Notes under the pieces: generated by a model | Seen by the model: only the letters and a program-made list of their open reading frames with translations | The model's database searches: none | What the model was told of the DNA's origin: nothing | Position numbers and translations under genes: made by a program | DNA from: Promethearchaeota archaeon | Lineage (GTDB): Archaea; Asgardarchaeota; Lokiarchaeia; Sigyniarchaeales; SOKP01 | Assembly: GCA_011364925.1 (NCBI GenBank) | Contig: RDOA01000026.1 | Location: 1 to 47,969 of the forward strand | Reading direction: 5' to 3' | Length of the DNA stretch: 47,969 bases | Shown here: piece by piece, positions 12,357-47,969 of the stretch | How positions within the stretch are numbered: the first letter of the stretch is position 1 | Layout: every line of letters begins with the position of its first letter

Positions 12357-14003
12357 TTATCCCTCTCTGAAAAAGCTTGTAAGTTCGACTACAGTTCTAA
12401 ATTTAGAGATATACTTTCCATATTTTTTGTTTAGAAGATCAAATAGATCATAAATAGGATGTGTTTTAGGAAAGTCTTCGAATTCTTTAAATTGGTTTAT
12501 AAAACTATCTGGGATTAGAAATGCGCATTTTTTATAGTTAGTGGAGAACTTATCTATAAAATTTACCGAATTTATTAACGAATTTTGATAAATGTTATTC
12601 TTTATTGAAAATGTAGCACTTATTTCGTATTGTCCCATAGGAAACGATTCAATTAGCTCGTAAGGAATGATTCCATGAATAATGGAGTAAAATGCTAAGT
12701 GGAAATCCATACTTGGTATAAATTCGTTCCTTCTTATTTCTCTTAGCCAATTACTTATAAATTGTGAAGTCGTGCCTTTAACATCCAATTCTGGCATGAT
12801 AACGAGGAATTTGACATTTTTAGGAGGACGGTAATTTTCTAGAATCCTCTTTTCATATCGATATATTAAAGGTCTATTAATGCTTTCTTTGGAAGCATAA
12901 AGTCTCCCGTGACTTTTATATACCTTCTCATATTTCTCAAAAAAAGGTTTATTTAATTTTATTATATCTAATGCTTTTACTAAGTTAGGATGAGTACGAA
13001 CTCTTTGTTCCACTAACTCCCATAAATTGCCTTCTCTTATCGCTTGCCTTATTGTTTTTAATTCAGAGAACGATAAATAGAGGTTATGTTTTGCGAGCAA
13101 TTCGATCCTCAAATTATCTTCGAACTTCCTAATCTCTTTAGGAGAAAAATCAGAGCATATTGGACAATGACAAGGGAATTCTTCTAATTCTTCGAGTTTT
13201 TTTGTACCTGTCGAAAGGGTAAAGTAACGGTTTTCTTTTGCGTATAGCACGTAAGCCGCCGAGTCCATTAAATCGCATCCACAAGCGACAGCTAGAGAAA
13301 AGTATTGTGGTAGTCCTAATCCGAACATATGAATAGGTTTATTAGGAATAATGTGCTTTTTCGTTGTTATTAGCATTTGAGTTGTTAAATCGAATCTATA
13401 ATCTAAAAACGCTTTTACAATTCCACCTATAGCATAAACTCCAAAATCTAATTTACTCATTTCTAGGGAGCTTTCTTTTAACAAGTCTGAATACTTTCCA
13501 CCGTGTATAGGTCCAAACCAAGAGCAATCTGAACGAGTTCTTCTTTTAATATTATCCTTTGCTCTTTGAATTGTAGTTAATACTTTACTTTTTGCGAGTT
13601 CGTAGGAATCCTCCAATTGTACGGGGATATCTAAAATAACAGGAAAATCTGAACCGATATTCTCTTGAAATTTTTCAATTGTATTTGCATCGATATCTAT
13701 AGAATCATCATGATACATATACTGTTGAAACGCGCCACTATCTGTTGCGATTAACCCATCGTAGTTTAAATACTTATGAATTCCTTCTTTTGATACTTGT
13801 TCCCTCAATTTTTCACTCTTAAAAATAATATACGCGTTCGTAAAAAGACATTGCGCACCTATCTTCTTTAAATCCAGTGGGGAGACAATATTTGCAGCGG
13901 GATGGATTACTGGAAATAAATTTGGAGTAATCATTTCTTTATTGTTTAATTTGATCTGACCTAAGCGTGCTAAGGCGTCAATATCAAGTATTTCAAACTT
14001 CAT
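12357..14003 (-). CDS. tgtA: Archaeosine tRNA-guanine(15) transglycosylase
   Basis: TDSGAFQ, HMFGLG, GCDLMDSAAY, Zn site CHCPIC...H, LWELVEQR..HP. Confidence 0.95.
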   Translation of the reverse strand: MKFEILDIDALARLGQIKLNNKEMITPNLFPVIHPAANIVSPLDLKKIGAQCLFTNAYIIFKSEKLREQVSKEGIHKYLNYDGLIATDSGAFQQYMYHDDSIDIDANTIEKFQENIGSDFPVILDIPVQLEDSYELAKSKVLTTIQRAKDNIKRRTRSDCSWFGPIHGGKYSDLLKESSLEMSKLDFGVYAIGGIVKAFLDYRFDLTTQMLITTKKHIIPNKPIHMFGLGLPQYFSLAVACGCDLMDSAAYVLYAKENRYFTLSTGTKKLEELEEFPCHCPICSDFSPKEIRKFEDNLRIELLAKHNLYLSFSELKTIRQAIREGNLWELVEQRVRTHPNLVKALDIIKLNKPFFEKYEKVYKSHGRLYASKESINRPLIYRYEKRILENYRPPKNVKFLVIMPELDVKGTTSQFISNWLREIRRNEFIPSMDFHLAFYSIIHGIIPYELIESFPMGQYEISATFSIKNNIYQNSLINSVNFIDKFSTNYKKCAFLIPDSFINQFKEFEDFPKTHPIYDLFDLLNKKYGKYISKFRTVVELTSFFREG

Positions 14004-14029
14004 ACATACCCACTTTAAATCAGATATAA

Positions 14030-14626
14030 TTAGTCAAAAAACTTTTCCAAACGATCTTCTTGAAATAGCTTTTCTAACCAGTCCACCTTTCCTACTATAA
14101 AGTCATTTGAATCGATTTTTTTCATAAGAATATCTATTATTGTTTTTGAAACAGATTCGATACTTCTATTTGTAGTATCAATTTCTAGTATAGGCACATT
14201 TAATGGTTTATTTAAAAAATAATTAACACAATTGCCCAATATTTCTGATTGAACATTTTCTCTAATTTTTTCTTCTTTATACCCTCTACTTTTTAACCTA
14301 TTATATAATTCATCAGGTTCGCATCTTAAAATTATAACAAAGTTGATATATTGCTCGGGAACTATGTCAGAGAAATGGCTTTCAATTATTAAAAACTTGG
14401 GGTTCTCTTTATTTTTGTATTCTTCTATTAAACCAATTATATATTCTACTATTTTTCTATTATCTATAACGGAAGTTTCTCTTTTAGAGTCATATTTTTC
14501 TATTAAATTTTCTGAAATTGCTAGTTCGTTTAAGCTTACTACATTAGCTTCAATACAATTTGAAACATTGTTTGAGATTGTAGTTTTTCCCGTTCCGGGA
14601 GTACCAGAAACGACTAAAATTTCCAT
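14030..14626 (-). CDS. Adenylate kinase/ATPase of the Fap7/hCINAP (AK6) family
   Basis: SGTPGTGKTT, IIESH motif, RL..RGY...KI.EN..SEI. Confidence 0.9.
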   Translation of the reverse strand: MEILVVSGTPGTGKTTISNNVSNCIEANVVSLNELAISENLIEKYDSKRETSVIDNRKIVEYIIGLIEEYKNKENPKFLIIESHFSDIVPEQYINFVIILRCEPDELYNRLKSRGYKEEKIRENVQSEILGNCVNYFLNKPLNVPILEIDTTNRSIESVSKTIIDILMKKIDSNDFIVGKVDWLEKLFQEDRLEKFFD

Positions 14627-14750: not shown

Positions 14751-14854
14751 TGGGAAAGGGGGGCTTCGAACCCCCGACCTCACGGTTATCAGCCGTGCGC
14801 TATACCAGGCTAAGCCACTGAAGAGATTTTTCGATTATAAAAATCCTCTCTCCC
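14751..14854 (-). tRNA. tRNA-Ile(GAT) with a 30-nt intron at 7/8 (14818-14847); 5' end may extend to 14868
   Basis: Anticodon arm CACGG-CTGATAA-CCGTG, T arm GGGGG-TTCGAAG-CCCCC; acceptor GGGAGAG/CTTTCCC is joined to the D arm only after intron removal. Confidence 0.88.
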
Positions 14855-15085
14855 AAGCTCGCATTCCCTTGTATGATAGAATGATCTTAATTATTTTGCT
14901 TTTAAGATTAATTTAATATTTTTTATAATGTATAACTAAAAAATTTTTTGAAATTTCATTTTTGACAAGAAATCTTCCATGAAGCCTCCGAGGGGATTGT
15001 ATCGCATTAAAGGATAATTTTTCATATGATAATGATTTAAAATTAATGAATTCATAGGATGTTATAGCATAAATGTATAATTAAA

Positions 15086-16285
15086 ATGATAATAGAGCCT
15101 TTCATTAAAGAATATATTCTTTTAGCTTTAAGGATTAACAGAATTTCTGATGGGTATGTTGACGCCTATTATGGCCCAGTCGAACTTGAAAAGATTGTAG
15201 AAACTGAGTTAATTAAATCACCAAAAGAATTGATAAATAAAGCTCGAATGCTTCAAAATAGTTTACCGGAACAAATAAGCGAACTTCCTCGTAGAAGATT
15301 TCTTAAAGCAAATCTTAAAGCTATGGAGGTTTTTTTAAACATTCTCTGTGGGAAAAAGATAGGTTTTACTGACCATGTTGAAGCGATACTTGGGATTAAA
15401 CCTGAAACTTTTCAAGATGATAGTGAATTTTATAAGCTTCAAGAAGAATTTAATTTAGTATATTCAGGAGATGGTATATTAACAGAAAGAATGGAATTAT
15501 ATAAGGAACGGAGGCGTATTCCTATTAAGAATCTCGTTTCTAATTTTAAAAGAGCTCTTGAATTAACATGTAATCGGACTAAAGAATTGTTCCCAGATTT
15601 ACTTCCAGAAAAAGAATCAATTAATGTTAAATTTACGGAAGAGAATGTAGGTTGGGCATTTTATAATCATTATAGGGGTGATTTTCGTTCTGTTATTGAA
15701 ATAAATCCTTTTCAACCATTATATTGGACAACTTTTTTGATTAATGCGGCACATGAAGGATATCCGGGTCATCATACAGAATTTTCAGTTAAAAATAATC
15801 TTCTTTCTAATCAATTAAATTGGAGTGAACATAGTTTAATCCTAATGAATACTCCTGCAGGAGCGATTACAGAAGGAATTGCAGAGTGTGCTTCATCTAT
15901 GCTTTTTTCTCCTAATGAGCACATAAGGATTGAATTGGAAGAATTTTGTCTTAAGCCTCTTGAAGAAGATCCAATTGAAATTTTAATTAAGCAGTTTGAG
16001 TTAAAACATAAGGTCAAAAAATTTTTTATTCACCTTGCTAACCTTGCAAATATAGATAATTGGTCCAAGAAAGAATTAATTGATTATGGTATGGAATTTG
16101 GTTTTCTACCTGAAATTAATTTAGAGAGTAGCATTTTATTCCTTCTAAATCCTAAATTTAGAATTATTTATTACACATATAACTATGGAAGAGAATTGAT
16201 TACTCGAAAGTTTGGATTTCCACCAAAAGTGGACGATTTTAGATATTTACTGTCAAATCCGGTTTTACCAAATGAGATAGTATAA
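15086..16285 (+). CDS. DUF885-like putative zinc metallopeptidase
   Basis: AHEGYPGHH, downstream EGIA, terminal YTYNYG. Confidence 0.75.
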   Translation: MIIEPFIKEYILLALRINRISDGYVDAYYGPVELEKIVETELIKSPKELINKARMLQNSLPEQISELPRRRFLKANLKAMEVFLNILCGKKIGFTDHVEAILGIKPETFQDDSEFYKLQEEFNLVYSGDGILTERMELYKERRRIPIKNLVSNFKRALELTCNRTKELFPDLLPEKESINVKFTEENVGWAFYNHYRGDFRSVIEINPFQPLYWTTFLINAAHEGYPGHHTEFSVKNNLLSNQLNWSEHSLILMNTPAGAITEGIAECASSMLFSPNEHIRIELEEFCLKPLEEDPIEILIKQFELKHKVKKFFIHLANLANIDNWSKKELIDYGMEFGFLPEINLESSILFLLNPKFRIIYYTYNYGRELITRKFGFPPKVDDFRYLLSNPVLPNEIV

Positions 16286-40992: not shown

Positions 40993-41102
40993 TGCTTCTG
41001 CCGGGATTTGAACCCGGGTCGCGAGGGTGAGAGCCTCACATGCATAATCCTTCTTTCTAATATAAGAAAAGAGTAAGTTTGACCGAACTACACTACAGAA
41101 GC
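40993..41102 (-). tRNA. tRNA-Glu(CTC) with a 35-nt intron at 21/22 (41044-41078)
   Basis: GCTTCTG/CAGAAGC acceptor, loop CTCTCAC, T arm CCGGG-TTCAAAT-CCCGG; mature length 75 nt. Confidence 0.93.

Positions 41103-47164: not shown

Positions 47165-47969
<805 letters not shown>

Follow-up and report, generated by a model that had tools for sequence, protein, structure and literature searches.

In a stretch of 47,969 nucleotides from a lokiarchaeal genome (Promethearchaeota archaeon, contig RDOA01000026.1 of assembly GCA_011364925.1; the whole stretch is called the window here), we identified what is probably a functional, single-copy gene for tRNA-Ile(GAU), split by an intron of the bulge-helix-bulge (BHB) type. 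The gene lies on the minus strand at 14854-14751, and a 30-nt insert (14847-14818) separates G7 from U8. This insert is very probably a real BHB intron at the 7/8 site, the junction next to the acceptor stem. A BHB motif built from the acceptor stem poses a folding conflict, the resolution of which has not been demonstrated in any archaeal pre-tRNA described so far. The leader of this gene carries a spare copy of the 5' acceptor strand, termed P1, and we lean slightly towards the view that P1 acts as a functional stand-in ("decoy") strand for the real one.

An intron at the acceptor-stem junction

The original prediction, which had been made from the letters alone, quoted the gene exactly as it reads from 14854 down to 14751 on the minus strand, without naming that strand. 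Its description of the junction was also borne out, as the GGAG/CTTC helix, the two 3-nt bulges, and the 8-bp inner helix are all present. In the central helix, G2-G5 (14853-14850) pair with intron nucleotides i25-i28 (CUUC, 14823-14820) through G-C, G·U, A-U, and G-C pairs. The 5' bulge consists of A6, G7, and i1, and the 3' bulge of i29, i30, and U8. Both cuts fall after the second base of the 3-nt bulge, which is the canonical BHB spacing; the standard 37/38 site is likewise cut after the second bulge base. The inner helix (i2-i9 with i17-i24, including one G·U pair) closes a 7-nt loop and abuts the 5' bulge, as the BHB class requires. Exon 2 contains the anticodon GAU and ends with the discriminator A73; CCA is not encoded.

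As predicted, the splicing motif occupies acceptor bases 2-5 and hence is incompatible with the acceptor stem. In the minimum free energy (MFE) structure of the 104-nt precursor, the acceptor stem forms and the intron hairpin is left as an insertion, indicating that the splicing fold and the acceptor stem are alternatives. The full gene was recovered neither by ARAGORN, which made no call on the unspliced DNA, nor by the Rfam gathering search; the Rfam tRNA model matched only 14819-14757 (44.7 bits, model positions 6-65). Removal of the 30 nt restored the tRNA, and ARAGORN then called tRNA-Ile(gat), whose 7-bp acceptor stem includes one G5·U68 pair. Since this essential gene escapes standard finders, lokiarchaeal genomes will seem to be without tRNA-Ile(GAU). 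The lack of a call by these programs would also fit a decaying pseudogene or an insert that is never removed. That explanation is scarcely credible, as the gene is the sole tRNA-Ile(GAU) locus in a 3.9-Mb assembly scored 100% complete, its exons are 100% identical to those of functional-looking intronless orthologs, and the covarying splicing motif has been kept in 31 species.

We searched exon 2 in 135 genomes of the family and read the sequence upstream of each match. In about 60 distinct alleles, exon 1 was joined directly to exon 2, giving exactly the predicted spliced product. The ortholog search among Asgard genomes that had been suggested with the original prediction yielded a homologous intron at the identical site in 31 species belonging to five genera. 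Its length was 30 nt, apart from one species each with 31 and 32 nt. A further 27 intron-bearing alleles were found in metagenomes. Among species-representative genomes scanned for exact matches, the carriers were Promethearchaeota / Promethearchaeia MAGs such as Loki_b31 and Loki_b32. Intron-bearing and intronless genes share their downstream neighbours (an AAA_18 kinase and the archaeosine tRNA-ribosyltransferase TGT), and both kinds are therefore alleles of one locus. Exon 2 was 99-100% identical to its orthologs across the genus, and exon 1 did not vary among the intron-bearing alleles. One genus has C2:G71, and there position 2 goes along with position 71 even though C2 weakens the BHB helix.

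The relatives also fixed the position of the intron. Judged from this genome by itself, a shared AG renders the placements 5/6, 6/7, and 7/8 equivalent. The final two intron bases of orthologs are AA or AT in place of AG, and the conserved mature sequence of the approximately 60 intronless orthologs is then obtained by cutting at 7/8 (G7|i1 and i30|U8) and at no other placement, in agreement with the predicted site. The placements 5/6 and 6/7 were thus ruled out by the species with introns ending in AA or AT. A 44-nt intron at 5/6 with the product GGGAAAG, which the original prediction had named as an example of a competing outcome, puts A7 or U7 opposite C66 in these species and gives no reason why the downstream GGGAGAG is absolutely conserved.

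Structure and covariation were analysed in an alignment of 29 species (29 distinct genome alleles). Paired bases occupied 93.6% of the cells in the proposed structure, compared with 43-63% when the partners were slid. Six of the eight inner-helix pairs had changed on both sides, and none of 500 shuffles reached the observed covariation. Across intron-bearing alleles i25, i26, and i29 were invariant, and the central helix had 4 bp in 24 of the 29 species. An outer helix of 5 bp between the linker and G9-U13 appeared in the MFE structure of the 53-nt junction. This helix was paired in 91% of cells over the 29 species, and an A/G change at position -5 still pairs with U12.

Two features of the motif weigh against this reading of the junction. 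First, the central helix is reduced to 3 bp in the remaining five species, namely the three with C2 and two with A at i28. Second, the outer and central helices are separated by two unpaired bases, U-1 and G1, which face the 3' bulge, so that the motif is relaxed at the 3' site (HBh'-like class). The strict hBHBh' form with a contiguous outer helix is accordingly absent here, and the 4-5 bp helix of linker and G9-U13 is set apart. A relaxed HBh'-like motif is accepted by (αβ)2 EndA, and an (αβ)2 EndA with a broad-specificity loop is conserved throughout TACK and Asgard archaea (PMC5829648). The host genome contains two open reading frames (ORFs) with an EndA domain (PF01974; 200 and 212 aa) on different contigs, and these two paralogs would fit an (αβ)2 enzyme. 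RtcB (560 bits) and RNase P RNA are also encoded.

A blastn-short search of this genome for a paralogous copy of the intron returned AT-rich noise only. In other genera, tRNA-Ile(GAU) carries T-loop introns at five loci (L129, L136, L138, L141, and L140) and a D-loop intron at one (L144). At a further locus (L045), the 7/8 intron is accompanied by a second insert after the anticodon stem. Introns at such different places indicate that the gene has been invaded several times independently.

A spare acceptor strand in the leader

P1 reads GGGAATG in this genome, and its consensus, GGGAAAG, is the exact complement of the 3' acceptor strand. It was found at -12 to -14 in every intron-bearing allele, both from genomes (29/29) and from metagenomes (27/27). 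Pairing with the 3' acceptor strand was complete (7/7) in 24 of the former and 22 of the latter, and no 7/7 match occurred among 62 intronless alleles. Column conservation was 0.92 for P1, equal to that of the helix strands, versus 0.69 for the flanking leader and 0.66 for the intron loop. More than 45 diverged alleles all agree in G1, G3, and G7 of P1. Positions 4-6 vary mostly between A and G, so pairing with U67-U69 is kept. Position 2 covaries with position 71, being C in just those cases in which the tRNA has C2:G71. RNAalifold, run unguided, closed the consensus structure by pairing P1 with the 3' acceptor strand. Partition-function calculations over the 29 species gave mean ensemble costs for the BHB conformer of 4.8 kcal/mol with P1, 8.7 kcal/mol with P1 deleted, and 8.3 kcal/mol with P1 complemented, a saving of about 4 kcal/mol through P1. 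Furthermore, P1 mostly has A5, which is Watson-Crick to U68, and exon 1 always has G5, which is Watson-Crick to the invariant intron base C25; the two purine strands look specialised.

On this basis we propose the following route, all steps of which beyond the sequence anatomy and the comparative pattern we infer. In the precursor, the 3' acceptor strand would pair with P1 at the start of the leader, and the real 5' strand would be kept out of the acceptor stem while the BHB exists, with its bases 2-5 taken up by the central helix. The linker and G9-U13 would form the outer helix, and the splicing hairpin would sit in a pseudo-cloverleaf at the place of the D arm. EndA would cut, RtcB would ligate G7 to U8, and the real strand would displace P1; RNase P would remove P1 together with the linker.

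Several observations weigh against such a role of P1. The strand is imperfect in this genome, where U6 faces U67, and it has two mismatches in one species. After in-silico splicing, P1 paired with the 3' strand at an average probability of 0.82 in a two-dimensional model, versus 0.06 for the real strand. The hand-over would therefore need the D arm and tertiary folding, or irreversible cleavage of a minor conformer by RNase P, and on this model it appears to be the weakest link of the proposal. In addition, all intron-bearing alleles descend from one cassette, which makes the association of P1 with the intron a single linkage rather than many independent events. In the tRNA-Ser(GCU) case described below, the modelled benefit of the spare strand was small in two of five species.

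P1 and the linker might then be a functionless leftover copy of tRNA positions 1-13, dating from the creation or insertion of the cassette, that hitch-hikes with a real 7/8 intron. Together they are an exact copy of positions 1-13 in two species, and an upstream 5' tRNA fragment left after integration of a mobile element is known in Caldiarchaeum (PMC3293823). The single origin of all alleles would let linkage alone account for the co-occurrence, and both the degenerate P1 of this genome and the small benefit modelled for tRNA-Ser(GCU) agree with this explanation. We nevertheless consider it unlikely in view of the invariant G1, G3, and G7, the conservation of P1 relative to leader and loop, and the A/G changes that keep pairing with U. 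P1 position 2 has, moreover, tracked the switch between C2:G71 and G2:C71, and an unrelated tRNA with a 6/7 intron repeats the arrangement in its own sequence.

Alternatively, P1 could be the true 5' exon, in which case the linker, the downstream GGGAGAG, and the 30 nt would form an intron of 43-51 nt, the 44-nt 5/6 form among them. The perfect pairing of consensus P1 with the 3' strand, favoured before as well as after removal of the 30 nt, is compatible with this idea, as are the acceptance of both products as tRNA-Ile by ARAGORN and the TATA-like boxes approximately 25-30 nt upstream of P1, from which, by the general rule for the spacing between TATA box and start, the transcript may begin at P1. 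However, no BHB places a cut after P1, and CUUC fits the downstream G2-G5 in 4/4 positions, compared with just 3/4 for P1 in most species. The downstream copy does not vary, it matches the intronless genes exactly, and in the C2:G71 genus it keeps C2 despite a weaker central helix, as only an exon would. The stem derived from P1 has U·U mismatches in four genome alleles, including this one, and in five metagenome alleles, and the 5/6 form meets the A7 or U7 opposite C66 noted above. An exonic P1 is thus very unlikely, and the decoy strand remains our preferred reading. P1, a 6-nt linker, and exon 1 joined to exon 2, the arrangement expected of a spliced intermediate or of an allele that retained P1 after intron loss, did not occur in 241 million metagenome records.

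Removal of the leader by RNase P could likewise be replaced by a second EndA intron, of 14 nt at 3/4. In this window, the tetramer ending at P1 G1 complements the tetramer ending at exon 1 G1, forming a central helix CAAG/CTTG with GG|A bulges in both copies, and its excision would yield the identical mature sequence. Elsewhere the upstream tetramer is AATG, AAAG, AACTG, etc., with 2-3 pairs only, and RNase P RNA is encoded by the host. As the pairing is confined to this genome and not conserved, this candidate was rejected; we regard it as highly improbable.

The arrangement of spare strand and intron had one independent replicate, which was met by following the paralogs of a nuclease-like gene described in the next section. 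Eight relatives have a tRNA-Ser(GCU) gene with a 6-nt exon 1 and a 30-35-nt intron at 6/7, whose central helix takes acceptor bases 1-4. In these alleles, a 7/7 copy of the 5' acceptor strand of the same tRNA precedes exon 1 by 10-12 nt, and no such copy was present in 23 tRNA-Ser(GCU) orthologs without the 6/7 intron. The sequence is unrelated to the tRNA-Ile case, and hence the design recurs; it is the sole independent replicate of the pairing of a spare strand with an intron. The tRNA-Ser(GCU) gene of the present genome has neither the 6/7 intron nor the spare strand.

A conserved AT-rich box precedes tRNA-Ser(GCU) and differs from the box upstream of tRNA-Ile. The spare strand of the intron-bearing Ser alleles follows the TATA-like end of the Ser box by approximately 20 nt, a distance suggesting that the Ser transcript starts at that strand.

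Probable mobility of the cassette

We propose that the leader, P1, exon 1, and intron form one cassette, which would have spread from species to species by gene conversion. In a tree built from the two syntenic downstream proteins, intron presence required at least 7-8 state changes among 30 species, and it was no more clustered than shuffled labels. The closest relatives of a cassette were often found in another genus; for example, one cassette of genus g1 was 91% identical to one of g22. The cassette of this genome was at most 73% identical to any other.

In five species, an intact ORF of 440-710 aa was located approximately 130 nt upstream of the intron-bearing tRNA-Ile on the same strand. 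Three more species had a broken ORF or one cut to an 88-aa remnant, and none was present at intronless loci. No match for this endonuclease-like ORF was obtained in Pfam, PDB sequences, or Foldseek. PHROGs gave only a weak match to a Zn-ribbon regulator, and the ESM Atlas only weak leads at 0.83 to phage DUF4379 and NUMOD1 proteins. Alignment of 20 homologs (P0001-P0020) revealed an invariant Zn ribbon (C..H..CPxC) and the motif E-x-D-G-x-x-H-D-E. In the AlphaFold model (pLDDT 77.8), residues 286-460 matched the RAP domain of FASTKD4 (Z 8.0), Vsr (1cw0, Z 7.6), I-Bth0305I (3r3p, Z 7.6), and a DUF559 protein (3hrl, Z 6.8). The N-terminus of the model resembled a homeodomain-like helix-turn-helix (HTH) with Z of about 5. 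From the modelled fold, the ORF is a probable Vsr-like PD-(D/E)xK homing endonuclease.

In relatives, this free-standing gene just upstream of the tRNA may be the driver of the spread, and it may have been lost here. The patchy presence, the decay of the gene, and the similarity across genera are, as far as sequences tell, what a homing endonuclease cycle would predict. Two points count on the other side: the assignment as a nuclease depends on middling Z scores and one motif, and the ORF was not found in this genome. The window presumably holds an old copy of the cassette that is free of the endonuclease. Taken together, we think it likely that mobility of the cassette was driven by the endonuclease. 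As a tentative extension that may well not hold, acceptor-stem introns of Asgard tRNAs in general might need a leader mimic, with Vsr-like homing endonucleases spreading the cassettes.

Three of the eight relatives with the intron in tRNA-Ser(GCU) have a distant endonuclease-like paralog in convergent orientation, approximately 100 nt past the 3' end of the tRNA. More generally, the ORFs form a Loki-specific family (HTH, Zn ribbon, and Vsr-like nuclease domain) without a Pfam family, which adjoins tRNA genes. Close copies stand beside intron-bearing tRNA-Ile, and paralogs of 28-33% identity beside other tRNAs; one of these, at L184, adjoins a two-intron tRNA (positions 366-498).

Relation to known systems and surroundings of the gene

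Many non-canonical intron sites are known in archaeal tRNAs. The original prediction did not count 7/8 among the commonly listed ones, and the site is indeed missing from the position lists in reviews, which treat 3/4 as the extreme (PMC4090602). In a 2025 paper, acceptor-stem introns are mentioned in general terms only (PMC12397907), and a 2026 Asgard census pooled acceptor and junction inserts as "other" (10.64898/2026.10.13.758758). We found no intron between tRNA positions 7 and 8 in the literature searched, which did not cover the Sugahara 2008 position list. Within that literature, the 7/8 site, the accessory leader element, and the likely mobility mechanism are undescribed.

The non-canonical BHB introns of Thermoproteales and other archaea share the motif geometry, the short intron, the half-exon motif, and the use of broad-specificity (αβ)2 EndA and of RtcB with the present case. 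They differ in that the intron here lies at the 7/8 junction of acceptor stem and D arm in an Asgard host and comes with a leader that holds a conserved spare acceptor strand, a feature described for no intron in the literature searched. In the split tRNAs of Nanoarchaeum equitans and in permuted tRNAs, leader or trailer sequence outside the mature tRNA also builds the helices for EndA, but there the extra sequences pair mutually into the motif (PMC4033280, PMC3978253). P1, in contrast, would pair with the mature 3' acceptor strand in a single transcript and free the real 5' strand. If this is true, the spare strand would be a cis-acting helper of a new kind for the maturation of tRNAs.

As to how the spare strand arose, the closest precedent is the heterogeneous tRNA-Thr(GGU) locus of Caldiarchaeum subterraneum, in which intron gain is likewise combined with a leftover upstream 5' fragment and linked to a mobile element with a recombinase (PMC3293823). 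The Caldiarchaeum fragment is 1.8 kb or more than 500 kb distant, with no proposed function (PMC3293823), whereas the fragment here is conserved at a fixed 6-7 nt from exon 1 and the associated gene looks like a nuclease of the Vsr type instead of a recombinase.

Free-standing homing endonucleases of phages mobilise neighbouring introns or genes, a process called collaborative or intronless homing. The present case resembles these systems in having a probable nuclease gene beside the intron and not inside it, a patchy and decaying distribution, and conflict with the host tree; I-Bth0305I (3r3p) is a homing endonuclease of the Vsr-like type. The phage systems involve group I introns, unlike the protein-spliced BHB intron in a cellular tRNA gene considered here, for which the role of the nuclease is a suggestion from sequence comparison.

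The way in which tRNA genes acquire BHB introns has been an open question since the discovery of these introns, and the 2026 Asgard census identified no general pathway for the gain of introns and explicitly left the question open (10.64898/2026.10.13.758758). If the proposed mobility is true, it would provide a first concrete way in which protein-spliced tRNA introns are gained. With a polymorphic cassette, conflict with the host tree, a decaying nuclease gene, and a second tRNA, the question becomes directly testable, and in the archaeal group closest to eukaryotes.

The coordinates of the features are listed in Table 1.

Table 1. Parts of the tRNA-Ile(GAU) gene, other features of the window, and comparison loci (loci numbered L lie in relatives).
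Feature	Position	Strand	Basis or remark
P1, spare copy of the 5' acceptor strand (GGGAATG)	14862..14868	-	comparative alignment, RNAalifold
Linker, 7 nt (6 in most relatives)	14855..14861	-	14860-14856 pairable with G9-U13 (14816-14812)
Exon 1, tRNA positions 1-7 (GGGAGAG)	14848..14854	-	same as 5' strand of intronless orthologs
BHB intron (very probable), 30 nt	14818..14847	-	homologous insert in 31 species
Exon 2, 67 nt, tRNA positions 8-73	14751..14817	-	Rfam tRNA match
TGT and AAA_18 protein genes	12357..14626	-	
Palindrome-like motif CAAAAAATTTTTTAG	~14935-14950	-	minus-strand reading
399-aa ORF	15086..16285	+	
tRNA-Glu(CUC)	40993..41102	-	Rfam, 50.8 bits
Small-subunit rRNA gene, 5' half	47166..47969	+	archaeal, 713.8 bits
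tRNA-Ser(GCU) with 6/7 intron	L177:1540-1668	+	
tRNA-Ser(GCU) with 6/7 intron	L179:1806-1940	-	
tRNA-Ser(GCU) with 6/7 intron	L181:140-320	+	
tRNA-Ser(GCU) with 6/7 intron	L189-L192, L200		
Member of the Loki-specific ORF family	L176:2274-4403	+	

Directly downstream of tRNA-Ile, the genes for TGT (archaeosine/queuine tRNA-ribosyltransferase, 548 aa) and the AAA_18 adenylate-kinase-like protein (198 aa) form a pair that is syntenic across the family. On the other side, the 399-aa ORF is divergent from tRNA-Ile, is unrelated to the endonuclease-like ORF, and had no match in Pfam or PHROG. It stands where most relatives have a neighbour of approximately 147 aa upstream of the tRNA, and synteny is therefore broken on the 5' side of tRNA-Ile. 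The CAAAAAATTTTTTAG motif, an A6-T6 palindrome-like sequence, occurs approximately 70-110 nt upstream of tRNA-Ile in most orthologs, both intron-bearing and intronless.

In the host genome, only 24 tRNA genes exceeded the Rfam threshold, and only 29 combined an intact T arm with an uninterrupted 5' strand. A genome scan anchored on the T arm, incomplete in that it covered just these 29 tRNAs, found two upstream strands complementary to the 3' acceptor strand for tRNA-Ile(GAU) only. Inserts of 25-90 nt occur in many tRNA genes of this genome, so that standard finders miss much of its tRNA complement. Within the window, tRNA-Glu(CUC) has, by the Rfam match, a D-loop insert of approximately 40 nt; ARAGORN called a 73-nt gene at 40994-41066 instead, implying a wrong 5' end. 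The small-subunit rRNA gene runs off the end of the window.
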